Assembly: GCA_963931445.1 (NCBI GenBank) | Contig: OZ007016.1 | Span: forward strand, 1,358,538-1,422,537 | Source: an uncultured Clostridia bacterium | GTDB lineage: Bacteria > Bacillota > Clostridia > TANB77 > CAG-508 | Direction: 5' to 3' | DNA: 64,000 nucleotides | Shown: one piece after another, positions 2,208 to 16,907 of the stretch | How positions within the stretch are numbered: the first letter of the stretch is position 1 | How the letters are laid out: every line of letters begins with the position of its first letter | The notes under the pieces: generated by a model | What the model saw: only the letters and a program-made list of their open reading frames with translations | Databases searched by the model: none | What the model was told of the DNA's origin: nothing | Translations under genes and position numbers: made by a program

Positions 2208-3060
2208 TTACATTTTTGTAACATATTTGTAATATATTACATTAACAATACTTTTTTCTTTCCTTCTGCCCCTATTCCGATTTATTCCTCTTTCTCCATC
2301 TCGTAAATCGTCTTCTATATCTTTTATTGTTAAATATTTATCCGAATCTGTAGTAGCAATTTTCTTAGCTACTATTAACGGATCTATAAAATCTATTAAA
2401 ATTCTTGCAGGTGATGAAGCAAAATTTGCTCCTTCTGCTATTAATGCTTCATAATAACTTTGACATGCACCAGCAAAAATTACTATATCCTTATTTTTCT
2501 TATTCTTTCTTATATTTTTTACAGTTTGAGCAAAATACTTTGAATTTCTATAGTTATATATATCTTCATAATTTCTTCCTGATTTTATCATTCCGATCAT
2601 GTCCTGTTATAACAACAATATCTGGATTATATCTTTCTATTAAATTATTTGCAACATTTACTTGATTTCTTTCTGGAATATTTTTTACAATAGCTTTCAA
2701 TCCCATTTTTTTATAGTAAATATTAGATTTTTCGCTATATCGTTTATCTCCATCTAAATGAAGAATCCTACCTGTATAAATTATTTTGTTATTCCTATCA
2801 AAAAAATTATTATTTTGAGTTTCTTTTGATTTTATCTTACTTTTTACATTACTATCTAATATATTATATATTTTTTTTATTTCATTTTTATTTATTATAT
2901 TTAAATCCTCTATATGTGCATCTGCTTTAAGTCTTATGGTAATTCCTCTTAGTATAGCTATTTTATCATTTACTATCATATCAACAAAGAAAACCACATC
3001 ATGATTGTGTGACTTTCTTGTTACAATATCTCCTTTTTTTACATTATTCACTCTAATCAC
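2208..3060 (-). pseudogene. yabG: Sporulation-specific protease YabG, disrupted by a 1-nt frameshift
   Basis: Two overlapping ORFs (2566-3060 and 2208-2600) are colinear with YabG: ...PDIVVITGHD then GMIKSGRNYEDIYNYRNSKYF...IFAGACQSYYEALIAEGANFASSP. The frame switches at CATGAT-C-GGAATG (about 2594-2596), which is not a homopolymer. Confidence 0.8.
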
Positions 3061-3195
3061 CTCGTATTATATTAGTCCGTCATTATATATTATGTCGAAT
3101 AATGTAAATTAGTGAAATTTTTATATTTGCTTTAATGATGATATTATTGTTATTAGTTATCTATATTTTTTTAGTTCTATTGGACTTACTCAAAG

Positions 3196-3203
3196 AATAC
3201 AAT
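3196..3203 (+). promoter_or_regulatory. Possible sigmaE-type -10 element (AATACAAT, compare CATACAnT) upstream of spoIIID
   Basis: Motif lies about 40 nt upstream of the spoIIID start. There is only a weak -35 (TTCTATT) about 14 nt upstream. This is a motif-level match only. Confidence 0.2.
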
Positions 3204-3239
3204 GTAACAAAACATAGTTTTCTTAGGGGGTTTTTGAAA

Positions 3240-3357
3240 TTGGAAAAAATGTATATAGAAGAGCGTGCGATTAATTTAGCACATTATATAATAGATTCAA
3301 AAGACACTGTGAGAGGCGCTGCTAAAAAATTTGGTATTAGTAAAAGCACTGTTCACA
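3240..3357 (+). pseudogene. spoIIID: spoIIID, 5' segment of a split gene (codons 1-39, HTH up to the recognition helix)
   Basis: (TTG)EKMYIEERAINLAHYIIDSKDTVRGAAKKFGISKSTVH matches the SpoIIID N-terminus. AGGGGG RBS at 3225-3230. After 3357 the frame continues into unrelated element sequence (TEVTFQNG..., stop at 3479). The start could instead be ATG 3249. Confidence 0.85.
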
Positions 3358-3493
3358 CCGAAGTAACATTCCAGAACGGTAAGAATAAATCACCTATAAT
3401 TCCAGAAAGTATTGAAATTAAAAAGGTTTTCTTAGCAGAGAAGAATCCTATTGTAAAATTAGGATTAGTAATAAAATAATTAGGAGGTTTGTT

Positions 3494-3886
3494 ATGGATA
3501 GTAAAGAATTAAAAAAAGAAATTGTAGATAAAAAAACAGGAATAAGTTATACATTAGTCGGAGATTATTATATGCCTAACTTATATTTGGAACCAGAAGA
3601 AAAAATCACATTAAATAAATATGGGTTATTAAGATTAAATTATTTGAAGAAGCATAAGAAAGCAGAATATACCATACTTTTTATAAATAGAGAACTAAAC
3701 AAACATTTAAAAGAAATTCAAGAACAAGCACAAAAGGAAATTGATTTAATAATAGAAGATTTAAAATCAAAAAGTGATTTAACAGAAGATATGAAAAATA
3801 CTAACCCTTTATATTGGGTTGGTACAATGAATGCAATAAAAAATCAAGCAGAAGAAATTGTTTTAAAGAAATTAATTTATGTATGA
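3494..3886 (+). CDS. TnpV-family transposon protein
   Basis: 130 aa. YTLVGDYYMPNL...YGLLRLNYLKKHKK...WVGTMNAIKNQAEEIVLKKLIY matches the TnpV pattern known from Tn4451-type elements. GGAGG RBS. Confidence 0.65.
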   Translation: MDSKELKKEIVDKKTGISYTLVGDYYMPNLYLEPEEKITLNKYGLLRLNYLKKHKKAEYTILFINRELNKHLKEIQEQAQKEIDLIIEDLKSKSDLTEDMKNTNPLYWVGTMNAIKNQAEEIVLKKLIYV

Positions 3887-3957
3887 TAAATTATTTACTT
3901 TAAAATAAAAATGCCTTAAAAACGATTTTGAGGCTTAACTGAATAAAGGAAATAACT

Positions 3958-3995
3958 AACTACTTGTAGTTTATAAACTATGAGTAGTTTTTTTG
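3958..3995 (+). terminator. Intrinsic terminator after tnpV
   Basis: AACTACTTGTAGTTTATAAACTATGAGTAGTT hairpin followed by a T-run. Confidence 0.6.
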
Positions 3996-4423
3996 TTTTC
4001 AAAAAGAGAATATGCCTCAAACTCTATAAAAGTGATAGGTGTGATGAGCCGATGCTATAAAGTTCATCCGTATTTGTATAAGTAGTCTAATTATACAAAG
4101 TGCGTGAGTGAGATTTTAGAACACAGACTCACAATAATAAAAGAGTATTCGGTGGCAAAACTTGGTGTGGATTTATAATTGTAAAAAGTTTGGACAAGTA
4201 TGAACAAAGATATTTAAAAGTATCAGCAATTATAGTAGCAACAGCTACTTACTAGACTACCTATGAAACGAGGCGAATGACCGACGGTTTCAGTTTGTAT
4301 GGGTGTAATAATTCTATTTTACAAATGGGATATTACACCTAATTCTACTTTAGCTCATTCCCTCTGGTTTCTGTAAAAGGTAGCCATATAGCGTGGAAGT
4401 TTGAAACCGAGCAAGGTTTCAAA

Positions 4424-4460
4424 GAGTAAGAAAAAATTTATTTTTTTCTTGCTCTTTTTT
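4424..4460 (+). terminator. Terminator-like hairpin ending the ORF-free region
   Basis: GAGTAAGAAAAAA..TTTTTTTCTTGCTC stem (1 mismatch) followed by TTTTTT. Confidence 0.45.
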
Positions 4461-4586
4461 CAATAAATGCAGATATGCAATTTATTGAAAAGCATAACAA
4501 ATGACAATTCATTTGTTATGAGAAAACTAAAAAATGCTAGTAGCAATTTTTAGTTTTGGGTTGTAGGGTTTACCCTGCCACACGGA

Positions 4587-4624
4587 CACTTTTACCTAAA
4601 AAGTGTTGTAGTGTGTTACAACAC
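4587..4624 (+). other. Candidate MobV-type oriT (hairpins with GTGTGT loop)
   Basis: CACTTTT/AAAAGTG hairpin, then GTGTTGTA-GTGTGT-TACAACAC hairpin about 75 nt upstream of mob. TAGTGTGTTA resembles the pMV158 nick region TAGTGTG/TTATAC as I recall it. Confidence 0.4.
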
Positions 4625-4697
4625 ATTCTAAATAAGTGCCATTTTTTAGTTTAGTTTGTGTTACTTTATTTAGCTATTCAAAGGAGGTAGATATTAT

Positions 4698-5945
4698 ATG
4701 AGTTATGCTATAATAAGGAATCAAAAATACAAAAGAGAAAATTTAAAAGGCATATTTAGACATAATGAAAGGAAAAATGAAAATTATTCTAATAAGAATA
4801 TTGATAAAGAGAAATCACATTTAAACTATTCATTGAAAGATCCAAAATATAGTTATGAAAAAGAATTTGAAAGAATAAGAAAAGAATATAATTTAAAAGG
4901 TCAAATTAAAACTGTTAGTAATATTGCTTGTGAATATATCATCACATCCGACAATGAATTTTTTAATAAAATTGGAGAAAAAGAAACTAGAAGATTTTTT
5001 GAAACTGCATATAAATTTGTATGTGAATATAAAAATTTAGGAGAACAATATATTTTATCAGCGAAAGTTCATAATGATGAGGATACTCCACATTTACATC
5101 TAGTTTTCTTACCTGTTGTTCACACAAAAGATAAAAAAGGAAATAATATTGATAAATTAGCTTGTAGTGAATTTTGGAAAGAAAAAGACAGTTACAGACA
5201 ATTACAAAATGCCTTTTACGAATATATGGTTTCACACAATTTTGAATTAGAAAGAGGCTTACCAAAAGAAGAAACTAATAGAACACATTTGAGTATTGAA
5301 GAATATAAAAAAATTACAAATTATGAGAAAACTAAAGAAATATTGCAAGATATAACATTAGAACTTCCAGAAGTACCAAGTATTGAAGATTTTAATAAGG
5401 TAGTTTTCAAAAGAAATGAAAAAATACAAAAAGAAATTATTGAGCCAAAAGATAAACTCATTGAAAAATTATACTCTGAAAACAAACAATTACACGGAGA
5501 AATAGAAAGACAAGTAAATGTAATTGATGAGGCAGAAAAATACCAAAAAGAAAGAGATAAAATACTTGAAGATAATGAGAATTTGCATAATAAAGTATAT
5601 CAAATGGAACACGATTATAAAGTAAAAAGCAATTCCCTTGATTTTAGATATAATAATAGAAAAGAAGAACTAGAAAAGGAATTTGAGAAAAAAGCATTTA
5701 ATTTAGAATATGAATATAAGCATAAAATACACAAACTAGAAAAAGAAAATACTAGACTTCATAAGGTTATAAAAACTTTTGAGGAAACTGTAAAAAAATT
5801 TATTAAATGGATTTGTAACAAATTTGAATTACCTTCTGAAGATGAAATTGTTAGAAATTTCGAAAAAGAAACTGGAAATTCTTTAAATGCTGAAAAACAA
5901 TTTGCTAAAAAAGAAAGAGTTAAAGAGTTTGAAAAAGCGTTATAA
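4698..5945 (+). CDS. Mob/Pre (MobV-family) plasmid recombination/relaxase protein
   Basis: MSYAIIRNQKYKRENLKGIFRHNER N-terminus and the HNDEDTPHLHLVFLP histidine motif, with a long coiled-coil C-terminus. GGAGG RBS. Confidence 0.8.
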   Translation: MSYAIIRNQKYKRENLKGIFRHNERKNENYSNKNIDKEKSHLNYSLKDPKYSYEKEFERIRKEYNLKGQIKTVSNIACEYIITSDNEFFNKIGEKETRRFFETAYKFVCEYKNLGEQYILSAKVHNDEDTPHLHLVFLPVVHTKDKKGNNIDKLACSEFWKEKDSYRQLQNAFYEYMVSHNFELERGLPKEETNRTHLSIEEYKKITNYEKTKEILQDITLELPEVPSIEDFNKVVFKRNEKIQKEIIEPKDKLIEKLYSENKQLHGEIERQVNVIDEAEKYQKERDKILEDNENLHNKVYQMEHDYKVKSNSLDFRYNNRKEELEKEFEKKAFNLEYEYKHKIHKLEKENTRLHKVIKTFEETVKKFIKWICNKFELPSEDEIVRNFEKETGNSLNAEKQFAKKERVKEFEKAL

Positions 5946-5946
5946 A

Positions 5947-5968
5947 ATAGAGGGCTTACACCCTCTAT
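5947..5968 (+). terminator. Hairpin after mob
   Basis: ATAGAGGG-CTTACA-CCCTCTAT. The following T-run is weak. Confidence 0.4.
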
Positions 5969-6005
5969 TTATATGACATGCAATTTGTCGCTATGATTAT
6001 AGCAT

Positions 6006-6043
6006 AAAAGTAAGTAATTTTCAAACTTCAATTACTTACTTTT
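6006..6043. terminator. 14-bp perfect hairpin between convergent mob and anti-sigma-like genes
   Basis: AAAAGTAAGTAATT...AATTACTTACTTTT. Confidence 0.5.
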
Positions 6044-6052
6044 ATTTAAAAA

Positions 6053-7216
6053 CTAATTATTAGGTATATATGGCTCTATTTTGTTTTCATTACTTGTTAT
6101 TGTGTTTGTATCCACTTCTTTAGTAACATATCCATTTACTGTATTTTCTGTCATCATAATTTTTTCTTCTACTATGTTTTTTTCTGTTTTCACTTCTTCA
6201 TCTGTTATTCCACTGCCACTTTCGTCAACATAAACAATTTTGTATCCGTTATAATTGTCTTTAATATAATTCAAAAATTCTTGCACCTTATCCTCGCCTA
6301 TATAGAATCCTTTACCTGTGTCAAGAATATTTGTTAGAAGATAACCTTTGTCAGTTAATGATACACTTATATTTTTATATCCTAATAATGGGATATCAAC
6401 ACTTATACCTATGCTTTGACTAAACCTTTCTGATGTATATTTTTCTGTATCATTATCACTATATATATTCTCTAAATTTTTATTATTAAACAACTTTTGC
6501 CAAATTATTTTATTATCTACACCATAAAATTCTACATTTATATCTTCTTGTAAATCTTCATCCCAATAATTATAGTATATTGTTCCAAAAGATATAATTT
6601 CTTCTAAATTCAAATCTTTCGTAAACTCTCCAAGTGTTGTTGGTCTATAATATGAATTTACATATACATAGTAATCAGTATCTCCTTCAAATTTTATTGC
6701 AATAGCACATTTTTCTTCTATATCTTTTATTGAATATAATTCTGCCTTTTTATTATAAGTAGTTTCAGTATATGTGTCATATCCTGTTAAAGTTGCATTG
6801 CCAATATTTTTTAGTATATTATTATTTGATATCTTTGTTATTCTACTTGAATATTTACTATTATTATATTCAACCTCATTAAATTGCTGACTAATAGACA
6901 TTTCATTCCATTTTGGGATTACTGCTGTATCTGTAGAAGTATCTTTCTTATCAACTTGTACTTCTTTTATAATCCAGTCATCTTTTTTTGAAATAATAAT
7001 ATCTGGCTTTGAAGTAAATATACCACTTTTATAAAGTCCTATCACTGCAATGAATACAATACAAATTGGAGCAAGAATATACTTTAATTTTAAATTTTTC
7101 ATAATATTCACCTTGTTATTGGATGCTATTCGATTTGTTTCTTCTATATCTGTTTCTTCAATTAAGTATTTTTCATCAATATCTCCAATGGCTTTTAATA
7201 AATCCTTATTATTCAT
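6053..7216 (-). CDS. Membrane-anchored protein, putative anti-sigma partner of the upstream ECF sigma
   Basis: Overlaps the sigma gene stop. N-terminal MNNKDLLKAIGDIDEKYLIEE motif, which is common after clostridial ECF sigma genes, followed by one TM (LKYILAPICIVFIAVIGLY) and a large extracytoplasmic domain. Confidence 0.45.
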   Translation of the reverse strand: MNNKDLLKAIGDIDEKYLIEETDIEETNRIASNNKVNIMKNLKLKYILAPICIVFIAVIGLYKSGIFTSKPDIIISKKDDWIIKEVQVDKKDTSTDTAVIPKWNEMSISQQFNEVEYNNSKYSSRITKISNNNILKNIGNATLTGYDTYTETTYNKKAELYSIKDIEEKCAIAIKFEGDTDYYVYVNSYYRPTTLGEFTKDLNLEEIISFGTIYYNYWDEDLQEDINVEFYGVDNKIIWQKLFNNKNLENIYSDNDTEKYTSERFSQSIGISVDIPLLGYKNISVSLTDKGYLLTNILDTGKGFYIGEDKVQEFLNYIKDNYNGYKIVYVDESGSGITDEEVKTEKNIVEEKIMMTENTVNGYVTKEVDTNTITSNENKIEPYIPNN

Positions 7217-7766
7217 ACAAACCACCTTCTTTCAGATAATTTCTTAGTTGATTTCTAAGCCTTAATAAAATTGTTTTGGTATTACTTTCAGTTATCTTAT
7301 TTTTAGAAGAAATTTCTTTAATCGAATATAAATACCAATACCTTTCTAAAAAAATTTTTCTTTTACCTTGTGATAGTTTTGATAAAAAATTATTAAGTGC
7401 ATTTACCAATTCATTATAGTCTAATTCTTTTTCTACATCATTATTTGAAGAAATACATTCATTTAATTCTTCAAGAGCAATTTCTAATGTATAATCTCTT
7501 TTTTTAGCTTTTTTTCTTTCATATTGATTAATAGCCAAGTTTCTAGTAATTTTTCCAATATATACTTTTAGTATATTGGGTCTCTGTGGAGGAATATTGT
7601 TCCAAGTTTTTAAGTATGTATCATTAACACATTCTTTAGCTTCTTCATTATCTTGCAATATGTTAAATGAAATTGTATTACAATATCTTCCATATTTTTT
7701 ATTCGTTTCATATATTGCTTTTTCTTGTCTATTCCAATATAAATTTATTATTTCTTCATCTTTCAT
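7209..7766 (-). CDS. ECF-type sigma-70 family RNA polymerase sigma factor
   Basis: Region 2-like ECVNDTYLKTWNNIPPQRPNILKVYIGKITRNLAINQY and region 4-like KRKIFLERYWYLYSIKEISSKNKITESNTKTILLRLRNQLRNYL. Confidence 0.7.
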   Translation of the reverse strand: MKDEEIINLYWNRQEKAIYETNKKYGRYCNTISFNILQDNEEAKECVNDTYLKTWNNIPPQRPNILKVYIGKITRNLAINQYERKKAKKRDYTLEIALEELNECISSNNDVEKELDYNELVNALNNFLSKLSQGKRKIFLERYWYLYSIKEISSKNKITESNTKTILLRLRNQLRNYLKEGGLYE

Positions 7767-7954
7767 ATTTTCCTCCCTTCTATCTATAAAGACAGAAATT
7801 ATTTTAATTGGTTACACTTTTTCATTTTTTTAGAAAAATTGAGCAAGATTTTTCACTTGCTCATATATTTTATTGTAAATTTATTATATTAAATCTGAGC
7901 AACAACTTACTATTATTAGATTTGTTGTAATGATTTAATTGTTTTAAAATTACA

Positions 7955-8569
7955 CTATTCAATTCTAATTACTTCATTTACTGGTATATTGTTATTTGAT
8001 AAAGTGTTAGTAATATTATTAGACTCATTTTCTAATATGTTAGAAATAATATTATTAATTGTGTTTAAATCTTCATCAGTTATCTTTGCTTGTTTATTTC
8101 CTTTTTGTATTTCCTTGCAATCTTCTTTAATATAATAAACTTCATTATTTAAAGTAATTTTATGAGTATTTATTCCAGCACATATTTCATTATTATATTT
8201 TGAATTTACTAATATATTTTGTATTATTTCTATATCTTCATACTCTGTTATCGTAACTGTTTTTCCTTCATATTCAATCTCCATTTTTATATCTTTTGGA
8301 AGTTCATACTTCATAAACCAACTTCCCATTTTTACCCCAATATTACTTTCATAAGGCTCATTTGGAGAAACCCCAACATATCTAATTACTTTATATCCTA
8401 GTCCCCAATAAGTAACTTTACATCCATCACTACTTATAGTTTTAATGCAGAATTTTGGCTCATGATTTGTTGTTACCCTACCACTATCAATATAGTTTGT
8501 AATAACTCCCACTATAACTACTGCAATTACAATTATAACACCAATTATCAACCACTTTTTATTTTTCAT
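7955..8569 (-). CDS. Hypothetical signal-anchored exported protein
   Basis: N-terminal MKNKKWLIIGVIIVIAVVIVGVI anchor. No recognisable domain. GGAGG RBS. Confidence 0.4.
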   Translation of the reverse strand: MKNKKWLIIGVIIVIAVVIVGVITNYIDSGRVTTNHEPKFCIKTISSDGCKVTYWGLGYKVIRYVGVSPNEPYESNIGVKMGSWFMKYELPKDIKMEIEYEGKTVTITEYEDIEIIQNILVNSKYNNEICAGINTHKITLNNEVYYIKEDCKEIQKGNKQAKITDEDLNTINNIISNILENESNNITNTLSNNNIPVNEVIRIE

Positions 8570-8660
8570 ATACTACCTCCTCAACAACTTACTATTTCAT
8601 TAAAAGAATAATACCATAAAAATAAAAGATTATCAATGTTTTATGATAATCTCCTAAATA

Positions 8661-8999
8661 TTATTTATTATATTTATCTAAAAATTCTTTCATTGCTATA
8701 TTTACTAATCTTGTTAGTGAAATTCCTGTTTCTTGTGTTATCTTATTTAAAGCTTCTGCATTTTCTTTTCTAATCATTACACTTCTATAAATTGTTATCT
8801 CATCTTCTGGTTTGGCATAATATTTTACACTTCCTTTAGACAGTAAATCTTCAATACAAACATTTATCATATCACTAATTGTTGCGTCATAATCTTTATC
8901 TACTATTTCTTTTAATCTTGTATATAATCTATCTTCTAAATTTATACTCTTTTGAACTGTATAATTTGATTTTTTATATAACCTATCTATTGCACTCAT
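8661..8999 (-). CDS. Tandem ribbon-helix-helix protein, paralogue A
   Basis: Start moved to the internal ATG with a GGAGGTG RBS. Two RHH-like halves (QKSINLEDRLYTRLKEIV...ISDMINVCIEDLL and YRSVMIRKENAEALNKITQETGISLTRLVNIAMKEFL). About 55% identical, by eye, to the ORF at 9940-10284. Confidence 0.55.
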   Translation of the reverse strand: MSAIDRLYKKSNYTVQKSINLEDRLYTRLKEIVDKDYDATISDMINVCIEDLLSKGSVKYYAKPEDEITIYRSVMIRKENAEALNKITQETGISLTRLVNIAMKEFLDKYNK

Positions 9000-9075
9000 A
9001 TTACACCTCCAGTAATTAATATATAACCTTTTCACGATTATTATACTTAAAACATTTGCAGTATGTAACTTAACT

Positions 9076-9099
9076 TTATCGTGTATTGATACACGATAA
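9076..9099. promoter_or_regulatory. Perfect 11-bp inverted repeat, a candidate operator in a divergent promoter region
   Basis: TTATCGTGTAT-tg-ATACACGATAA between the RHH paralogue A gene and the gene at 9163. Confidence 0.45.
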
Positions 9100-9162
9100 T
9101 AGGTTGAATAAAAAGTGTTTTTAATATATAATATGTTCAAATGTTTTGAAAGGAGGTAAAAT

Positions 9163-9862
9163 ATGCAAGTTTCTGAAAAATGTGTAAAATTACTAAAATC
9201 TCTTAATATTTCTGCTTTAAAATCTAATGTCCTAATTGCTGATTTAAAGACAATACAATATGGTATAGTTGATGAGAAAAGTGATCCAAGTTTAGATTAT
9301 GATAATTATTGGCATAAACCATTAAGCAAAGATATGCTTAATTTGGTAGATGAATGGAAAGACAAACAATTTTCTGAAGATTTATTTTTGATTTTAAATA
9401 CTAATTTAAAACAAATTGTAAAAGATGATAATACAAAATATTCTGCACAAATGATTTTTCCATTATTTATAGACAACAAATTAGACGGATTTACTATTTT
9501 CTTTAGAACTAAACGGCGACTATATATTAAGTAGTTCTAAAGCACCTAAAACAATTAGAGATTTTATACAACAAGATTTAAACAACGAAAATAAGCCAGA
9601 AACAAAACATCTTGATTTGAATTGGTTTAATAAGAGTAATATTGATATGGTAGATGATAAAGTAGAAGAAAATATAAATGATTTACTAGATATAGAAGAA
9701 TACATTATACTTAATCATAAATTACAGAAATTAACTGTAGAGCTTATATCTAATTTAGATTTAGCACAAACACATAAATTTCGTGAATATCAGCAAGTAG
9801 AATTAGAACTTTCTTCTTATCAAAATAGTTTAGCATACTATATTGCTTTAAATAAAAAATAG
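9163..9862 (+). pseudogene. Hypothetical protein, apparently frameshifted at an A-run
   Basis: ORFs 9163-9534 and 9617-9862. The second frame is open from 9485. Removing one A at 9511-9513 gives a continuous ...IFFRTNGDYILSSSKAPKTIRDF... protein of about 230 aa. Confidence 0.4.
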
Positions 9863-9939
9863 TCTATTATATAAATTTATTATATAATAAACTATGCTTG
9901 GTTTTATAATATAAGGTAAGTTGATATTTTCATATTAAC

Positions 9940-10284
9940 TTATCTTTTATTATCATATTTTTCTAAAAATTCTTTTACAGCACAATTTAATAATCTTGTT
10001 ACAGAAATACCAGTTTTTTTATGAAGTTTTTGTAAGTTATTTAAATTTTCTTTTCTAATCATAATACTTCTATATGTAACCGTTTCATTTTCTGGCTTTT
10101 CATAAAAGGAAGGCTTATTTTCATATACATATTCTTCTATGCACACATTCATAACTTCACTAAATGTTGCGTCATAGTTCTTTTTAGTAAATCTCATTAG
10201 TCTTTTGTATAAACTATCATCAATGTTAATTGATTTCTTAACAGTTTTATTGTTGATAGAATATAATCTGTCTACTGCACTCAT
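9940..10284 (-). CDS. Tandem ribbon-helix-helix protein, paralogue B
   Basis: Start at the internal ATG after GGAGGTGG. MSAVDRLYSINNKTVKKSINIDDSLYKRL...YRSIMIRKENLNNLQKLHKKTGISVTRLLNCAVKEFL. Confidence 0.55.
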   Translation of the reverse strand: MSAVDRLYSINNKTVKKSINIDDSLYKRLMRFTKKNYDATFSEVMNVCIEEYVYENKPSFYEKPENETVTYRSIMIRKENLNNLQKLHKKTGISVTRLLNCAVKEFLEKYDNKR

Positions 10285-10447
10285 ATATCCACCTCCTATT
10301 ACTCGTTTTACAACCATTTGAATTATATAAAATTTTATTTTTAAATAATACTTGTTGCTATTCCTTATGAACGAGCATAAACAGGTTTATACTTAGTGCG
10401 TATTTGCATAAAATAAGAGAGTATAGCCACTCTCTTTATACAAATTG

Positions 10448-11419
10448 TTATTTTTTCTTTTTTAGTTTTTTTATTATTTCATTAGATAATTCTTCACTTG
10501 GTGTTACTTTTACAGTTAGTCCATCTTTTGTTTTTATTACATTTGAGCTTAACCTTGCTCTACTGTTGTAAACATTTTCTTGGTTTTTACAACTAAATGT
10601 ATCATATAGTGACTTTGGGTTATTTGCAATAAATGCTTTTCCACAATGCTTACACAGTTTTAAATATTTCTTTTCTTGTATTGCATATAATTTAAAGTTT
10701 TCATCTATGTATTCTTTTAAACTCCTAATATGTATTGTTAGTCCGTCATATTCTAAATTAACTCTTATATGATTTGATTCTAATTTATTTATTTCTCTTG
10801 TATTGATATATTCTCCATTATCTTTTTTCAATTCTGTTAAAGTATTATACATAAATTGAGCATATTTTATTATCATATCTGCTTGTTCGTAATATTTTTC
10901 ATTTTCAAATAACACATTATTTATTTCTGGAGAAATAAATTTTTCCATACTATGTTCATATATATTTTTGTTTATTTTCTCCAGTAATTCTTTTATTTCT
11001 TCATCAGTAGAAGTAGGAAAGAATATTTTAAAATAATCAACTATTTTCATTATGCTAAAGCAATCACTATTATTGATATAATTAAATTCTTTTAATAGTA
11101 TTTCCTTGTCTAATGTATAATATCTATTTACTGGAAAATCGTGTATAAGTCCTAAAAGTCCATATTGGTTTACATATTCAAGCAATAATTTGTCAGTATT
11201 CTCTTTTTGTTCTATAGATAATTTTCCTAAATTGATAAAATCTATTAACGGTTTATCATTTTCTTTATAATCATCAAAATCAATTAAGGAATAGTTTGTT
11301 CTATGTATTTCCAAAATTTTAGGAACAACATATTTGATGTTATTTATTACCGTTATTTCATATTCTTCAAATTTTGGCATTGACTCATTGTTAAAGCCAT
11401 ATTCTAAATTCATTTTCAT
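10448..11419 (-). CDS. Hypothetical 323-aa protein with C-terminal Cys-rich motif
   Basis: CKHCGKAFIANNPKSLYDTFSCKNQ near the C-terminus, and a basic tail. No family recognised. Hairpin AAGAGAGTGGCTATACTCTCTT lies downstream. Confidence 0.45.
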   Translation of the reverse strand: MKMNLEYGFNNESMPKFEEYEITVINNIKYVVPKILEIHRTNYSLIDFDDYKENDKPLIDFINLGKLSIEQKENTDKLLLEYVNQYGLLGLIHDFPVNRYYTLDKEILLKEFNYINNSDCFSIMKIVDYFKIFFPTSTDEEIKELLEKINKNIYEHSMEKFISPEINNVLFENEKYYEQADMIIKYAQFMYNTLTELKKDNGEYINTREINKLESNHIRVNLEYDGLTIHIRSLKEYIDENFKLYAIQEKKYLKLCKHCGKAFIANNPKSLYDTFSCKNQENVYNSRARLSSNVIKTKDGLTVKVTPSEELSNEIIKKLKKKK

Positions 11420-11466
11420 AACATTCTCCTATTCATAAAAATTTTTTAAAAATATATTGTAATCTA

Positions 11467-11495
11467 TTGACATTTAAAAAGTATTACTTTATAAT
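11467..11495 (+). promoter_or_regulatory. Consensus sigmaA promoter (TTGACA-17-TATAAT) directed at the HTH gene
   Basis: TTGACA 11467-11472, 17-nt spacer, TATAAT 11490-11495. Flanked by direct repeats TGTAATCTATT, one just before the -35 and one about 10 nt after the -10. Confidence 0.55.
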
Positions 11496-11693
11496 AGAAA
11501 TGTAATCTATTTCATAGCGTAAAGTATTAGTATTGATTTTATGTTAATTTTAATACTTTCTTTATAACAATATATTACAATAAATATTTATAATTGTCAA
11601 ATGATGTATATAAATTACGAGTTGTACTTTATATATATAGTATTTTTATATCTAAAAAAGTGCAAGTAAAAAATATAAGTAAAGGAGGACAAA

Positions 11694-12161
11694 ATGGATA
11701 AAAAAGAAAAAATTTTACAAATGTATTTTGAAGAACACCAGAAACAAGACATTATTGCTGAAACTGTTGGGGTTTCTCAAAGTTATATTTCTCAAGTAGT
11801 TCAAAAAGATACAAGATATACTAACGAAAAAGAGATAAGACATAATGAATCAATGCAGAAAAAGGCTGAATATAATAAAGAGTATAATAAAACTTATATT
11901 AGAAAAAGGAAAAATAATTTAATAGAAGAATATTATGCTTTACTTGAATTGTTAAAAAGAGATAGCGAGTTTCTATCAACAAAATCTGAAATGTCAGACA
12001 TTGCATTTGCTAAATGGAATAGATCAATATATCAATATGATAAAAATTCTAGCAATTTAGTTTTAAGAAAAGGAATAAATGTTACAAAAGATGTACCAAG
12101 AGTAGTAAAAAATATTGTGAGAGCAAGTAGTATAAAAAGTTCAAATGTATATTCAAGATAA
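11694..12161 (+). CDS. Small HTH DNA-binding protein
   Basis: QDIIAETVGVSQSYISQVVQKD helix-turn-helix. AAAGGAGG RBS. Terminator TCACTTTG..CAAAGTGA plus a T-run at 12163-12190. Confidence 0.5.
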   Translation: MDKKEKILQMYFEEHQKQDIIAETVGVSQSYISQVVQKDTRYTNEKEIRHNESMQKKAEYNKEYNKTYIRKRKNNLIEEYYALLELLKRDSEFLSTKSEMSDIAFAKWNRSIYQYDKNSSNLVLRKGINVTKDVPRVVKNIVRASSIKSSNVYSR

Positions 12162-12240
12162 TCACTTTGTTAAGTCAAAGTGAATTTTTTATTTTAGTAA
12201 TATTTTTAGAACTTTAATAATAGTATTGAAAAGGAAGTAG

Positions 12241-12417
12241 GTGAGAATTTTGAAAAAGGCTTTAAATATTACATTTTATAATCCTAATACAGAAGAACAA
12301 ATAGTACAAGCTATGGCTGGAGTATTGGCATATAACTTGGCAGAGAATGATGAAAAGATAAAGTTTGATTATAATTTTCAAAATTCTCACTGTATAGAAG
12401 ATGAAATTGAGATATAA
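12241..12417 (+). CDS. Possible 58-aa small ORF (below the ORF-track cut-off)
   Basis: GTG/TTG start after AAGGAAG. VRILKKALNITFYNPNTEEQIVQAMAGVLAYNLAENDEKIKFDYNFQNSHCIEDEIEI. Its first 16 nt are the perfect reverse complement of nt 12373-12388 within the same ORF. Confidence 0.3.
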   Translation: MRILKKALNITFYNPNTEEQIVQAMAGVLAYNLAENDEKIKFDYNFQNSHCIEDEIEI

Positions 12418-12537
12418 AATTTAATAATCTTAATTGAATAAAATAATCATATATGTTAAAATCGAAACAGATAATATTTTCCTTATATATAGATAAATAT
12501 GATAAAATGTAGTATAATAGAAAGAGAGGTTGATTTT

Positions 12538-12978
12538 ATGCTAAAATTGTATTTAGATACTTGTTGTTATAATAGACCATTTGATGATTTAGAACAAGAA
12601 AAGATAAATCTAGAGGCAAATGCAATAGAGAATATATTTAGAAAGCATATAAATAAAGAAGTAGAAATTTATAAAAGTATGGTAATAGATTTTGAAATAT
12701 CCAAAATTAAATTAGATAATAAAAGACGACAAGTAGAAGATTTATATGACGCAATGGAATTATCACAAATTACTTATACACCAGAGATTAAACAAAGAGC
12801 ATTAGAATTAAAGCAATTTAATATAAAAGATATGGATGCATTACATTTATCTTTTGCAGAAAGTACAGATATAGATTATTTTATTACAACTGATAGGTTG
12901 TTAATAAATGCTTCAAAAAGAGCAAATTTAAGGATTAAAGTTATAAATCCAATAGAATTTATTATGGAGGTGATTTAA
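12538..12978 (+). CDS. PIN-domain protein (putative toxin nuclease)
   Basis: MLKLYLDTCCYNRPFDD (first acidic residue), DALHLSFAE and YFITTDRLL motifs. AGAGAGG RBS before ATG 12538. The track ORF start at 12499 was rejected. Confidence 0.55.
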   Translation: MLKLYLDTCCYNRPFDDLEQEKINLEANAIENIFRKHINKEVEIYKSMVIDFEISKIKLDNKRRQVEDLYDAMELSQITYTPEIKQRALELKQFNIKDMDALHLSFAESTDIDYFITTDRLLINASKRANLRIKVINPIEFIMEVI

Positions 12979-13179
12979 ATGGCTGTAACAGTAAGAGAGT
13001 TAGAAAGAATAAGACGAGAAGGTCTTAAAGCTTTAAAAGATAAATTAGGTGTTGAAGGTATGATAAAATTCATACAAATGTATAGTGATGGAAAAGGAGA
13101 TTATACAAAGGAAAAATATGAAAATAATGAAGAATTAACAATAGAAGATTTTGAAAAATATTTAGCTGAAAACAACTAA
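12979..13179 (+). CDS. Small acidic protein translationally coupled to the PIN gene (possible antitoxin)
   Basis: The ATG immediately follows the PIN stop (TAAATG). 66 aa. No recognised family. Confidence 0.4.
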   Translation: MAVTVRELERIRREGLKALKDKLGVEGMIKFIQMYSDGKGDYTKEKYENNEELTIEDFEKYLAENN

Positions 13180-13315
13180 TCAAATACAAATTAAAACTAT
13201 TCTCAAAAAGAGAGTAGTTTTTTATTGCTTTTTTATAACTTATGTGCTAGAATGTAACAGAACGAATATAAAGTTACTGACATAAACAATGTATAAGAAA
13301 GTGAGAATTTGAGTT

Positions 13316-14914
13316 ATGAAAATTGCAGCATATTGTAGAGTTTCAACAGAAAAAGAAGCACAAATAGACTCTCTTGAAAAGCAAATAGAGTTCTTTAATG
13401 AATTTACCCAAAAGAACGGTTATGAGTTGTACAAGCTATATGCAGATGAAGGAATTTCTGGAAAGCAAATAAAAAATAGAAAGCAATTCCAACAAATGAT
13501 GAAAGACGCAAAGGCAAAGAAATTTGAAAGAGTAGTTGTTAAAGATGTCAGCCGTTTTGCTAGAAATACAGTAGATTTATTACAAAGTATAAGAGAGCTA
13601 AAATCCTATGGAATACAAGTAGATTTCTTAAATAATGGCGAAGTTATGGAAGGTGGTTCTGAATTTATACTAACTATTTTAGGTGCAATGGCACAACAAG
13701 AAAGTGCCAATATGTCTAAAAGGGTTAAATTTGGAAAAGACATTACAGCTAAAAAAGGTCGAGTACCTAATTTGGTATTTGGTTATGACAAAATACCAGG
13801 AGAAAAATATACTTTAAGAATAAATGAAGAAGAATCCAAAATTGTAAAAGAAATATTTGAAAGCTATGTATATAAAGGAATGGGAACAACAAAGATTGCT
13901 TGGGAATTAAATGATAAAGGAATAAGAACAAAGAAAACAAAGTCAAAATGGGTACAAACTTCTATTGTAAGAATGCTAAAGAATCCAATATATACAGGTA
14001 GAGTAACAAATAAGAAATCAGAAATTACTGACTTTATAACAGGAACAAGAAAAAATTTACCAGAAGAAGATTGGATTGTTGACTACAAACCAGAAATGAG
14101 AATTATATCAGATGAATTATTTAATAGAACACAAGAAATTTTAGAACAGAGGTCAAATGAATTTAAACTAAACAATAAAAGAGAAAAAACAGAATATGTA
14201 TTTAGTACACTAATATATTGTAAACATTGTGGTTATTCCTTTAGAAGAATAAGAAGAAAATACACAGAAGATGGCAAAGAATATATAAGATGGGTATGTA
14301 GTGGAAGAAACTCAATGGGTGTAAATCATTGCCCTAACACAACTGTAATTGATGAAGAGGAACTTTTAAATGCCATTAAAGAATATCTTAAAAGTATAAT
14401 TTCTAATAAAAAGAATTTTATGAAAGCTGTTGAAAAAGAATTTGAAAAAATAACAGCTTTAAGAGAAAACAATGAAAGAAGTGAAAAAAGTTTACTCAAA
14501 GAAATAGAAAAAGTAACAGTTAAGAAACAAAAATATATGGAGATGTTCCAAAATGAAGTAATCAATATGCAAGAGCTAAAACAATATACAAATCCATTAA
14601 ATGAAGATATAGCAAGATTAGAAAGAGAATTAAAGCTAATTACTTCTGAAATAAAAGAAAAAGATGTATTAGAAAAAGAACTAACAAAAACAATAAAAAC
14701 AGTAGATGACATTTTAAACAATGAAACAATTACAAATGCAATGCTTAAAACAATAATAGATGTGATTGAAGTAGATGATGATTCAAATGTAGAAGTAAGA
14801 CTAAAATTATTAAATGAAATTGGAAGTAGCCCTATGGTAATTACGAATTTTGATGATATAAGAAATCAATATTCTACCGTTACGAAAAGTAACAACAGTA
14901 CACAAAGATGTTAG
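13316..14914 (+). CDS. Large serine recombinase (TnpX/SpoIVCA class)
   Basis: N-terminal resolvase domain MKIAAYCRVSTEKEAQ...ERVVVKDVSRFARN (catalytic Ser in RVST), a recombinase domain, a zinc ribbon CKHCGYSF...WVCSGRNSMGVNHCPN and a coiled coil. The last 3 sense codons and the stop lie beyond the attR crossover. Confidence 0.9.
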   Translation: MKIAAYCRVSTEKEAQIDSLEKQIEFFNEFTQKNGYELYKLYADEGISGKQIKNRKQFQQMMKDAKAKKFERVVVKDVSRFARNTVDLLQSIRELKSYGIQVDFLNNGEVMEGGSEFILTILGAMAQQESANMSKRVKFGKDITAKKGRVPNLVFGYDKIPGEKYTLRINEEESKIVKEIFESYVYKGMGTTKIAWELNDKGIRTKKTKSKWVQTSIVRMLKNPIYTGRVTNKKSEITDFITGTRKNLPEEDWIVDYKPEMRIISDELFNRTQEILEQRSNEFKLNNKREKTEYVFSTLIYCKHCGYSFRRIRRKYTEDGKEYIRWVCSGRNSMGVNHCPNTTVIDEEELLNAIKEYLKSIISNKKNFMKAVEKEFEKITALRENNERSEKSLLKEIEKVTVKKQKYMEMFQNEVINMQELKQYTNPLNEDIARLERELKLITSEIKEKDVLEKELTKTIKTVDDILNNETITNAMLKTIIDVIEVDDDSNVEVRLKLLNEIGSSPMVITNFDDIRNQYSTVTKSNNSTQRC

Positions 14915-15041
14915 TGAAAGATTATTGAAAATAAGCCCTTATCTAGCACAAGAAGTTAGAACTATTTTAAATGAAAATAAAGCAGAAAGGCATATTAGAG
15001 GAGGAATGGCAACTCGCTTAAAATATAGTAAGAAAATGTAA
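14901..15041 (+). pseudogene. spoIIID: spoIIID, 3' segment of the split gene (45 codons plus stop)
   Basis: Frame gives (VH)KDVSERLLKISPYLAQEVRTILNENKAERHIRGGMATRLKYSKKM*, colinear with the SpoIIID C-terminal half (HKDLTERL...KLKYKK). It has no start codon or RBS of its own. Confidence 0.85.
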
Positions 15042-15062
15042 ATAAATATTAGGAGGATTATT

Positions 15063-15275
15063 ATGAATAATAAACTATATAATGTATTAAAATGGATAAC
15101 ACTAATTTTACTACCTGCAGTAGGAACTTTATACTTTGCTTTATCTGTAATTTGGAATTTTCCTTATGATGATCACATTATTGGTACTCTTGCAGCTATT
15201 GATACTTTTTTAGGTTCATTATTAATGATTAAAAGTACAAATATAAATAAAGAAGCTAAAAAGGACGATGATTAA
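15063..15275 (+). CDS. Phage-holin-like small membrane protein (two TM segments)
   Basis: YNVLKWITLILLPAVGTLYFALSVIWNFPYDDHIIGTLAAIDTFLGSLL resembles a small Firmicute phage holin family. GGAGG RBS. Confidence 0.4.
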   Translation: MNNKLYNVLKWITLILLPAVGTLYFALSVIWNFPYDDHIIGTLAAIDTFLGSLLMIKSTNINKEAKKDDD

Positions 15276-15288
15276 TCGTCCTTTTTTT
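15258..15288. terminator. Bidirectional terminator between the holin-like gene and fabI
   Basis: AAAA-AGGACGAT-gatta-ATCGTCCT-TTTTTT. Confidence 0.6.
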
Positions 15289-16057
15289 AAATTCCCATTA
15301 TATTATATCCGTTATCTGCATATATTACTTGACCTGTAATTGCTGAAGCCATTTGGCTAAATAAAAATGACACTACATTTCCTACTTCTTCTGTTGTAAC
15401 ATTTCTTCTTAATGGTGCTTTTTCTTCTACTACATCCAATATACTTCCAAAATCTTTAATTCCTTTTGCAGATAATGTTTTTATTGGTCCTGCTGAAACT
15501 GCATTAACTCTAACATTTTTCTTTCCTAAATTAGCCGCTAAATATCTTACACTTGTTTCTAACGCTGCTTTAGCAACTCCCATTACATTGTATCCTGGAA
15601 GTACTTTTGTAGAACCATAATATGTTAATGAAACTAAACTTGCACCATCATTTAACATATCCAATTCATCTGCTATTCTAGCTACAGCTACAAAAGAATA
15701 TGCACTTACATCATTTGCATGAGAAAATCCTTCTCTACTTGTTGTTATAAAATCATTTCTTAAATCTTCTGTATTAGCATGAGCTATGCTATGTAATATT
15801 CCATCTAATTTTCCATTTTCTTTTTTTATTTTTTCAAAGCATTCTTTTATCGAATCATCACTTGAAGCATCACATGTATATGCTTTAGCATTTGGAATCT
15901 CTGAAATTAATTCTTCTACTTTTTCTCTATTATCCTCTCCCATAAATGTAAATAACACTCTAGCACCATTATCAGCAGCTGATCTTGCAGCCCCCCATGC
16001 TATACTCCATTTATTTCTAATTCCCATGACTAATACTGTTTTATTTTCTAATAACAT
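15287..16057 (-). CDS. fabI: Enoyl-ACP reductase FabI
   Basis: GIRNKWSIAWGAARSAADNGARVLFTF and YYGSTKVLPGYNVMGVAKAALE (Y-x6-K) motifs. Confidence 0.85.
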   Translation of the reverse strand: MLLENKTVLVMGIRNKWSIAWGAARSAADNGARVLFTFMGEDNREKVEELISEIPNAKAYTCDASSDDSIKECFEKIKKENGKLDGILHSIAHANTEDLRNDFITTSREGFSHANDVSAYSFVAVARIADELDMLNDGASLVSLTYYGSTKVLPGYNVMGVAKAALETSVRYLAANLGKKNVRVNAVSAGPIKTLSAKGIKDFGSILDVVEEKAPLRRNVTTEEVGNVVSFLFSQMASAITGQVIYADNGYNIMGI

Positions 16058-16118
16058 TTTCTATCCTCCTATTTATTTTAATTTTTTAGATAAATTAACT
16101 ATTGTAATCTTAGAATAA

Positions 16119-16907
16119 CTACATATCTCTAAATTTTCTATATCTTTTTTCTAACAATTCTTCTACATCTAATTTCTGTAGTTCTTTTGTGTATTCTACT
16201 ATTTTGTTTTTTATTATTCTTGACATTTTTTCTACATCAAATTTTGCATTTCCTTTTGGTTCTTTTAAAACTTCATCTATAACTCCTAGTTCTAATAAAT
16301 CATTTGCTGTTAGTTTCATTTTTTCTGCTGCTTGTTCTGATTTTGTACTATCTTTCCATAATATACTTGCATATCCTTCTGGAGATAGTATAGAATATAC
16401 TGCATTTTCAAGCATTAATATTCTATCTCCTACCCCTATTGCTAAAGCTCCTCCACTTGAACCTTCTCCTATTACAAATACTATAATTGGTACTTTTAAT
16501 CCAGACATTACCATTAAATTTCTTGCAATTGCTTCTCCTTGACCTCTTTCTTCTGCTCCCAGCCCTGGGTATGCTCCTTTAGTATCTATAAATGTTATAA
16601 TCGGTCTTTTAAACTTTTCCGCTTGTTTCATAAATCTTAAACTTTTTCTATAAGCTTCTGGATTAGGCATTCCAAAATTTCTTTCAATATTCTCTTTTGT
16701 TGTTCTTCCTTTTTGTTCTCCTATTATTGTATAATTCTGATTTCCTATATTTCCTACCCCGCAGACTATGGATTTATCATCTTTAAAAAATCTATCCCCA
16801 TGAAGTTCTATAAAATCATCAAATATATTATTTATATAGTCTAGTGCAGTTGGTCTATCTGGTTCTCTTGCAATTTTAACTCTTTGCCATGCAGAAATTT
16901 TAGACAT
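16119..16907 (-). CDS. accA: Acetyl-CoA carboxylase carboxyltransferase alpha subunit
   Basis: [26 protein letters not shown] motif. Confidence 0.85.

Follow-up and report, generated by a model that had tools for sequence, protein, structure and literature searches.

A sporulation gene divided by a mobile element is either inactivated or put together again when it is needed, and which of these applies is the question raised by the locus described here. It lies in a stretch of 64,000 nucleotides (hereafter the window) of contig OZ007016.1 from an uncultured Clostridia bacterium (assembly GCA_963931445.1). The split gene is spoIIID, and it is interrupted by an element encoding a large serine recombinase. 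As judged by comparison of loci, the element is not a singular event but belongs to a large spoIIID-specific family found in at least 77 species-level genomes. It is almost certainly an active integrative element specific for spoIIID. That its excision serves to rebuild spoIIID during sporulation, as in skin-like intervening elements, is regarded as the probable, though less secure, part of the answer.

The 5' part of the gene encodes (M)EKMYIEERAINLAHYIIDSKDTVRGAAKKFGISKSTVH; past position 3356 its frame reads on as TEVTFQNG... until a TAA at 3477-3479. The split falls in the recognition-helix codons ...SKSTVH/KDV... (slash, point of interruption), which form the most conserved stretch of the gene. 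An earlier note on this DNA had described codons 1-39 running into this unrelated frame, and the remaining 45 codons immediately 3' of a 532-aa large serine recombinase. Both descriptions agreed with the reading of open reading frames (ORFs), with the coordinates and with the domain matches. The note had further proposed that a join at a shared CACA restores an 84-aa SpoIIID. The joined product covered positions 1-81 out of 82 of the Pfam model SpoIIID (PF12116, 6.5e-39) and reached 124 bits against TIGR02844, whose equivalog cut-off is 111.5 bits; it is thus a member of the SpoIIID family, and a natural contig encoded an identical protein. It was at most 95 % identical to uninterrupted SpoIIID proteins encoded at the syntenic yabG-fabI locus. 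No second spoIIID copy was found within the window.

Direct comparison of the junctions recovered the common CACA (3354-3357 and 14901-14904) and, as had been counted before, eight identical nucleotides out of 11 up to and including it. The element boundaries (Table 1) were set where the alignments of an empty site (L095) and of a circular joint (L090) break. In the reconstructed attP, the dyad was centred on the CA of GTA-CA-CA and 15 of the 24 arm positions were symmetric (window arms CCGTTACGAAAAGTAAC... and ...GTAACATTCCAGAACGG). Across the family, the conserved arms read CCGTTACGAAAAGTAAC..GTACAC and, at the opposite side, ..GATGTAACAC..AGAACGG, again forming an imperfect dyad, and attP resembled attB over up to ~18 nt in many elements. 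Short attP and attB sites, an imperfect dyad around a 2-bp crossover and the lack of long terminal direct repeats are features of large serine recombinase att sites, and all were displayed here.

Both products expected from excision were encountered in public sequences. An exact protein look-up retrieved the 84-aa joined protein from a public protein collection and led to contig L095 (ENA ERZ17292901), which displays an uninterrupted spoIIID with exactly the predicted attB. This contig aligned with window positions 2708-3357 and then 14895-16074, both flanks being 95-96 % identical, including a downstream holin gene. The circular joint was found in L090 (ENA ERZ28613825) for an element 93-95 % identical to that of the window, in the permuted order recombinase, TnpV, Mob (window 13088-14904, then 3351-5978). 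The recombinase encoded there terminates with ...THRSNIPER, the ending expected after excision; the change of this C-terminus to ...STHRSNIPER and a stop, foreseen in the earlier note, was reproduced in silico and was also seen in the natural protein P0159 (...THRSNIPER). The attP joint occurred in addition in P0302, and scaffold L091 displayed two head-to-tail copies of an 11,935-bp relative, representing a circular or a tandem form. Exact attB was also present in L101, which was 100 % identical to L100 over 18.6 kb, the sole difference being the occupancy of the spoIIID site. The rejoined attB, the circular attP and an intact spoIIID beside yabG, all of which the earlier note had pointed to, thus exist in nature, the last of them as a gene located between yabG and fabI in relatives of ~79 % nucleotide identity. 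An exact scan of JGI metagenomes for the attB of the window species gave no match. By these comparisons, attL x attR recombination at the CA of GTA-CA-CA was shown to free a circle and to restore an intact spoIIID, with both products occurring naturally. The evidence that precise excision restores the reading frame is limited to in silico joining and to comparison with natural sequences.

The distribution of related elements was examined with one genome per species. Recombinase relatives were found in 157 species, and the best 80 loci were kept for comparison; these included 25 complete elements, 26 loci with a recoverable spoIIID 5' half and 77 with a spoIIID 3' half. The 3' half, starting at K40, adjoined the end of the recombinase gene in 77 out of 80 loci, these recombinases being 85-97 % identical to that of the window, and the 5' half ended at H39 in all 26 loci with a long enough flank. 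Of the three other loci, one stopped with the contig, one displayed a divergent spoIIID homologue interrupted at the corresponding position and one lay at an unrelated site. The interruption described in the earlier note is therefore real, and it is not a singular event: the same codon is targeted in at least 77 species-level genomes. Thousands of recombinase relatives existed at 85-97 % identity; their length variation was confined to the C-terminal tail, which corresponds to an out-of-frame read of the spoIIID 3' half. Elements of the family ranged from 4.7 kb to ~12 kb. Their hosts were uncultured low-GC gut Clostridia of humans, mice, rabbits, chickens and ruminants, such as Clostridium sp. 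CAG:343.

Recombinase genes displayed a median nucleotide identity of 87.8 %, some pairs reaching 100 %, while host flanks were mostly unalignable and displayed a median identity of 71 % where they could be aligned. Loci L026 and L028 carried identical recombinases between flanks only 72 % identical; conversely, L015 and L026 displayed flanks 93.6 % identical and recombinases only 90 % identical. By these comparisons, the elements were shown to have spread horizontally between host species. Both spoIIID halves were nevertheless open wherever they were found, 77 out of 77 on the 3' side and 26 out of 26 on the 5' side, without stop or frameshift and with ratios of non-synonymous to synonymous substitution rates (dN/dS) of 0.09 and 0.12, respectively. 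As proof of long-term maintenance, these ratios were downgraded: transfer was recent, and intact halves with a low dN/dS are therefore weaker evidence than they appear.

A few loci departed from the common arrangement. In L045 (~1066-1218 and 11546-11690), the recombinase gene led into an attP-like joint and another left end, without a spoIIID 3' half; this arrangement, which displayed stop codons in both tail ORFs, suggests tandem elements or a mixed assembly. Rare insertions outside spoIIID were seen in L089 (~11546) and in P0294, P0297 and P0266/P0272/P0299/P0300, one of them joining the tail to a protein-kinase-like N-terminus. The context ...NSDQFxxVxxVH/ recurred and may indicate a secondary insertion site.

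What the element adds to the 5' half of spoIIID is a short reading frame at its left end, referred to here as the tail. The tail occurred in each of the 25 complete elements, with an open frame in 24 of them, taking up the first 120-144 nt (40-48 codons) and yielding chimeric ORFs of 79-87 aa across the family. Its typical sequence is ...STVH/KDVTLKNGKK.GQVIPESIEIKKVFLAEKNPVVKLGLVIK followed by the stop codon, and all its indels were in frame. With a dN/dS of 0.26-0.29, against 0.86-1.45 in shifted frames, it appeared to be under purifying selection. Entropy at third codon positions was about twice that at positions 1 and 2, and conservation between elements dropped from ~0.87 to ~0.4 exactly at the tail stop codon. 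The notion that this conservation reflects an extended att site or regulatory DNA was discarded in view of the third-position variation, the in-frame indels and the end at the stop codon. On these substitution patterns, the tail is a protein-coding module. Apart from the recombinase module with its upstream region, it was the only module universal in the family, no free-standing gene being conserved. In the window element, the tail would be translatable only as a spoIIID fusion, because in the circular form the frame upstream of it, read directly over 14840-14904, displays a stop and then no start codon. Neither a word-indexed search nor HMMER over 1.84 billion representative proteins detected homologues of the tail outside the element family, other matches being low-complexity noise.

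The recombinase displayed the Resolvase, Recombinase and Zn_ribbon_recom domains, all above cut-offs, as well as the serine of the N-terminal YCRVST motif. Its ORF overlaps the spoIIID 3' half by 11 nt. It scored under the equivalog cut-offs of CcrB, XisF and CcrC, and its best matches in annotated collections were 33 % (plasmids) and 46 % (phages) identical, with no named relative. The intrinsic terminator preceding the gene was found once against 0.0 expected in shuffled sequences, and a similar sequence occurred in 51 out of 77 loci. The promoter pattern TTGnnn-17-TGnTAnAAT was displayed upstream of the recombinase gene in 70 out of 77 loci; this promoter was not called by a generic scan of the window because its -35 hexamer matches only three positions out of six, and its assignment rests on conservation. 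The inverted repeat downstream of the -10 box (GTAACAGAACG...AAGTTAC in the window) resembles the GTAACA..GAACG(G) motif of the attP arms and possibly serves as an operator through which the recombinase controls its own expression. Recombinase expression would thus be constitutive and possibly self-limited.

Two further peculiarities were observed in recombinase genes of the family. GC-rich hairpin insertions of ~90-130 nt, in frame and adding ~30 residues, were found in the 3' part of some of them (L065 ~6565-6660, L084 ~11540-11660; proteins P0143, P0155 and P0165), and similar insertions lay between promoter and start codon, upstream of the recombinase ATG, in L021 and L085. They look like small repeats resembling miniature inverted-repeat transposable elements and alien to genomes of 25 % GC. 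In roughly one out of two complete elements, for example in L029 (~11422-11604), L035, L052, L080 and L087, the spoIIID frame (M..LRKVT(T/S)VHKDV...) is opened by an ATG lying within the 3' end of the recombinase gene; from the transcript of that gene, the 3' half could there be translated on its own, as an ORF of ~60 aa. No such start exists in the window element.

SpoIIID stands near the top of the mother-cell programme and, in B. subtilis and in C. difficile skin, it is needed to trigger excision of the sigK element. A split spoIIID needs a different control logic, because SpoIIID itself switches on excision in the known systems; the earlier note had already stated that the timing would have to differ. 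A plausible answer came from the promoters: the recombinase gene has its own, and the tail would be translated from that of spoIIID. The gene is sigmaE-dependent in the organisms studied. A motif GTTCTAwT...GAATACAAT preceded spoIIID in 24 occupied loci and in four empty-site relatives, and is presumably recognised by sigmaE, as gauged by a consensus with a -10 of the CATA..T class and a -35 of the ATA type (PMC3789822).

The data point to control by a constitutive recombinase together with a factor whose translation depends on the promoter of the interrupted gene itself, and the following scheme can be proposed. The recombinase would be made constitutively from its housekeeping-type promoter, like SprA of SPbeta and CD1231 of C. 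difficile. Upon activation of the spoIIID promoter by sigmaE in the mother cell, the integrated state would give rise to the chimeric SpoIIID(1-39)-tail protein. This chimera, or the tail alone, would act as a recombination directionality factor (RDF) and enable attL x attR recombination. Excision would place an intact spoIIID behind the same promoter and uncouple the tail, which would make the switch self-timed and self-limiting; forespore and vegetative cells would keep the element. The assignment of the chimera as RDF is put forward tentatively. Equally tentative is its corollary, that integration itself creates the RDF gene out of the conserved tail and SpoIIID residues 1-39 (most of the helix-turn-helix, HTH) and that excision destroys it. 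The factor would then arise solely in the mother cell, from the sigmaE promoter of the target gene, and solely as long as the element is integrated. If true, this would be a self-extinguishing developmental switch operating one mother-cell tier earlier than any known case.

Evidence more telling than the intact halves came from a fossil element (P0270; L100/L101, 9850-10210 and 18380-18800), in which the attL core is deleted in frame (12 codons) and the recombinase is lost. The fossil carries 8.3 kb of cargo, and its protein occurred on 23 contigs. After it come another spoIIID promoter and another copy of the gene, 157 bp being duplicated at 93.6 % identity. L101 has this copy intact; in L100, identical otherwise, a new element again occupies it. 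The retention of an intact second copy where excision can no longer take place indicates that spoIIID is still needed.

Several points weigh against a developmentally controlled excision. The promoter assignments are based on consensus resemblance only, and the role of the chimera as directionality factor is one that we purely infer. No known RDF family matched the tail, and AlphaFold2 modelling of a 76-aa chimera with 22 sequences was uninformative (mean predicted local distance difference test score 53.8, predicted template modelling score 0.25). Accessory factors are dispensable for excision by certain large serine recombinases, for instance TnpX of Tn4451, and the circular forms in metagenomes could stem from vegetative excision for transfer. 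In addition, yabG next to spoIIID is frameshifted, and sporulation of these uncultured, small-genome hosts is presumed. Excision, by the recombinase alone or together with a further factor, might then be non-programmed, at a low constitutive level and followed by re-integration as in TnpX elements, the element being mainly a selfish mobilisable transposon at a conserved landing site. Only an element-free sub-population would sporulate, which amounts to phase variation of sporulation capacity, and the tail would have another role; it might, for example, neutralise the truncated HTH fragment or serve integration or transfer. The housekeeping-type promoter of the recombinase gene, frequent horizontal transfer with a relaxase in 16 out of 25 elements, free circular or tandem forms common enough to be assembled, occupied and empty sites in the same genetic background and occasional secondary insertion sites are all in line with it. 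It accounts poorly, however, for an in-frame fusion that is conserved behind the spoIIID promoter under purifying selection, and a window tail lacking its own start in the circle is hard to explain if that promoter is irrelevant. Moreover, all characterised elements splitting sporulation genes use a regulated directionality factor (PMC5025042, PMC6957869). Non-programmed excision is accordingly considered rather unlikely.

Plain insertional inactivation, in which host-adapted gut Clostridia with reduced genomes are losing sporulation and the halves are intact merely through recency, appears more improbable still. The insertions are indeed recent and horizontally acquired, the neighbouring yabG is frameshifted, and decayed junctions exist, such as P0270 (attL deleted, at least 23 contigs) and L045 (stop in the tail). 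On the other hand, not a single spoIIID half displayed a stop or frameshift, the predicted attB and attP products occur naturally, and beside the decayed P0270 element there is another spoIIID, under a promoter of its own. The neighbouring sporulation gene product SipL, as well as YunB in relatives, is intact, and the yabG frameshift is not ordinary decay because it is conserved across species with both parts open. An assembly artefact, i.e. a chimeric contig joining a plasmid-like element into spoIIID, would suit hosts known mostly from metagenome assemblies. It was nevertheless given virtually no chance and was ruled out by recurrence: identical junctions recurred in several long-read and short-read assemblies made independently of each other and from different samples, as well as in 77 species-level genomes, and the 4-nt common core is too short to mislead an assembler. 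Between the inactivation and the reconstitution that the earlier note had left side by side, reconstitution is thus judged the more plausible.

Table 1. Coordinates of the split spoIIID gene, the inserted element and its contents in the window
Feature	Position	Strand	Remarks
spoIIID promoter, mother-cell (sigmaE/K-like) type	3174-3203	+	GTTCTATT 3174-3181, 13-nt gap, GAATACAAT 3195-3203
spoIIID 5' part, codons 1-39	3240-3356	+	start TTG 3240 or ATG 3249; ribosome-binding site AGGGGG 3225-3230
attL core CACA	3354-3357	+	common core; predicted crossover dinucleotide CA 3354-3355
Tail, 40 codons and stop	3357-3479	+	in frame with spoIIID N-half; chimeric ORF 3240-3479, 79 aa
Inserted element, 11,547 bp	3358-14904	+	boundaries ambiguous by the 4-nt core; alignments of L095 and L090
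attP right arm CCGAAGTAACATTCCAGAACGGTAA	3358-3382	+	kept in all attL junctions; imperfect inverted copy of left arm
TnpV-family protein, 130 aa, cargo	3494-3886	+	Pfam PF14198, 2.8e-34; in 3 of 25 complete elements
MobV (Mob_Pre) relaxase, 415 aa	4698-5945	+	PF01076, 4.7e-45; NCBIfam MobV, 132 bits, cut-off 100
390-aa protein, function unassigned by profile matches	6053-7225	-	overlaps ECF sigma gene
Extracytoplasmic function (ECF)-type sigma factor	7209-7766	-	TIGR02937, 60.9 bits
204-aa unknown protein, variable cargo	7955-8569	-	
Two paralogous ribbon-helix-helix (RHH) proteins, variable cargo	8661-9140 and 9940-10317	-	
323-aa unknown protein, variable cargo	10448-11419	-	
155-aa HTH protein, variable cargo	11694-12161	+	
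PIN-domain protein, variable cargo	12499-12978	+	
Intrinsic terminator, predicted to shield recombinase gene from upstream cargo	13193-13221	+	12-pair stem, then T run
Predicted recombinase promoter, housekeeping (sigmaA-like) extended -10	13225-13253	+	TTGCTT, 17 nt, TGnTAGAAT; conservation
Inverted repeat GTAAC-N15-GTTAC directly 3' of the -10	13254-13278	+	-10 plus GTAACnGAA in 71 of 77 loci
Large serine recombinase, 532 aa, ORF across attR	13316-14914	+	PF00239 4.5e-35, PF07508 1.8e-23, PF13408 7.9e-13
attP left arm CTACCGTTACGAAAAGTAACAACAGTACA	14875-14904	+	attR core CACA 14901-14904; kept in 77 attR junctions
spoIIID 3' part, codons 40-84 and stop	14904-15041	+	encodes KDVSERLL...KYSKKM and stop

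The remaining genes of the window element are variable cargo. Other members of the family carried a Schlafen/AlbA-domain protein together with unknown genes, and toxin-like or defence-like genes occurred in the family. The 390-aa protein encoded beside the ECF sigma factor is a possible anti-sigma factor. The genes of the two RHH paralogues shared segments of 77-82 % identity, spaced by a constant 1,285 nt. Profile matches revealed no phage structural, lysis or packaging genes among the ORFs of the window element, nor were type IV secretion genes found among them; no origin of transfer was identified in the element and Rfam gave no match anywhere in the window. On its gene content, the window element is an integrative mobilisable element with its own integrase and relaxase, since a relaxase is present and conjugation genes are absent. 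The designation skin-like, used in the earlier note, is thus apt for an element which splits a sporulation gene and is excised precisely. It does not extend to the content, which comprises no phage genes but a MobV relaxase and TnpV.

In the host locus, yabG (2208-3060, minus strand) consists of two overlapping ORFs. The shift, at ~2590-2592, is due to one extra C after the ...TGHD codons (CAT GAT C GGA ATG). The same extra C was found at the same codon in a second species ~78 % identical at the DNA level (CAC GAC C GGT ATG). The shift was also seen in L007-L009, L096, L097 and L099, in independent long-read and short-read assemblies, and yabG was uninterrupted in L002, L005 and L098. Both parts are open and conserved and the shift site contains the rare codon CGG; this may represent a programmed +1 frameshift rather than decay or a sequencing error. 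A gene for a 70-aa Dp-1-type holin (15063-15275) lies between spoIIID and fabI. It is located outside the element, as it is present in the empty-site contig L095, and was not found at this position in L002 and L007. The accA gene, a single ORF of 262 aa in the window (16119-16907), was predicted as two fragments (131 aa and ~100 aa) in L007, L008 and L095.

Some consequences extend beyond this locus. Automated sporulation calls in metagenome-assembled genomes are likely misled, because a split spoIIID is scored as absent or as a pseudogene, and the family may modulate spore-mediated transmission. It also offers a compact (~2 kb), highly site-specific serine integrase system with hundreds of natural examples of attB, attP, attL and attR.

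Genes described as hosts of intervening elements comprise sigK, spsM, spoVFB, spoVR, gerE, spoIVFB and kamA (PMC4191935, PMC6957869). The earlier note had regarded spoIIID as a new host gene, which was not upheld: a 64.7-kb skin-like element interrupting spoIIID of Ruminiclostridium cellulolyticum H10 had been listed before (Galperin et al. 2022, bioRxiv 10.1101/2022.02.25.481979, Table S3). A literature search returned no further spoIIID-interrupting element besides this listing. Both elements share the host gene and split it at comparable positions, with an N fragment of 126 nt there and 117 nt here; that of R. cellulolyticum is about six times larger, and its recombinase Ccel_3111 (511 aa) lies by the N fragment on the opposite strand. 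It is known from a table entry, which gives neither a family nor a mechanism nor any evidence of excision. Size, content, geometry, spread and the conserved fusion ORF distinguish the present family from it. The family, its prevalence, its mobility and its candidate control mechanism thus appear to be undescribed so far.

In composition, the window element recalls Tn4451/Tn4453 (TnpX, TnpV, TnpZ), which combine a large serine recombinase with TnpV and a Mob/Pre relaxase and form a circular intermediate. Insertion of TnpX elements takes place at many sites containing GA and does without a directionality factor, and their circle creates the tnpX promoter. The low target specificity that defines these transposons was not observed here, where one site was used in 77 out of 80 loci with a CA core. 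The recombinase gene is located at the other end and reads outward, TnpV is carried by few elements, and TnpX (PDB 2mhc) matched the catalytic domain of the recombinase only (1e-8). The fdxN element of Anabaena heterocysts likewise undergoes developmental excision by a large serine recombinase, XisF, in a terminally differentiated cell. XisF was the second-best NCBIfam match of the recombinase at 159.6 bits, far under its equivalog cut-off of 375; organism, gene and accessory factors (XisH, XisI) differ. The element gin in gerE of B. cereus ATCC 10987 (PMC5595907) is also a small non-prophage element with a serine recombinase in a mother-cell HTH gene. It affects another gene, belongs to another recombinase lineage and is known from a single strain, whereas the present family is multi-species and includes relaxases.

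Closer in organization are SPbeta (SprA/SprB, spsM) and skin (SpoIVCA/Skr, sigK) of B. subtilis (PMC4191935, PMC6957869). They share with the present elements a recombination unit at the element edges, a sigmaA promoter on the integrase gene, a sporulation promoter on the RDF gene and precise reconstitution of a mother-cell gene, the two promoters being predicted here. SprA (PDB 9dxh) was the closest full-length match among solved structures, aligning weakly to recombinase residues 11-492 (E = 3e-12). Prophage-derived content, which is displayed by skin, SPbeta, vfbin and vrin and not by gin, was not encountered here; the elements are small (4.7-12 kb), often mobilisable and target spoIIID. 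Known small RDFs measure ~58-73 aa, so that the chimera (79-87 aa) would be slightly larger. A constitutive recombinase combined with a small, mother-cell-specific directionality factor is documented (PMC5025042; PMC6957869). In skin(Cd) of C. difficile (CD1231 and CD1234; PMC5025042), an element with a large serine recombinase likewise splits a mother-cell regulatory gene, and its recombinase is constitutive and its small factor produced from a sigmaE-dependent promoter, two properties that promoter motifs suggest here. Its recombinase is not a close homologue of the present one, and it contains phage-like genes, which are missing here. CD1234 is free-standing, whereas the candidate factor of the present family is fused to the N-half of the host gene. 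Expression of CD1234 needs SpoIIID (PMC5025042), which would be impossible here: the host gene of skin(Cd) is sigK, and that of the present family is spoIIID, one step earlier in the cascade.

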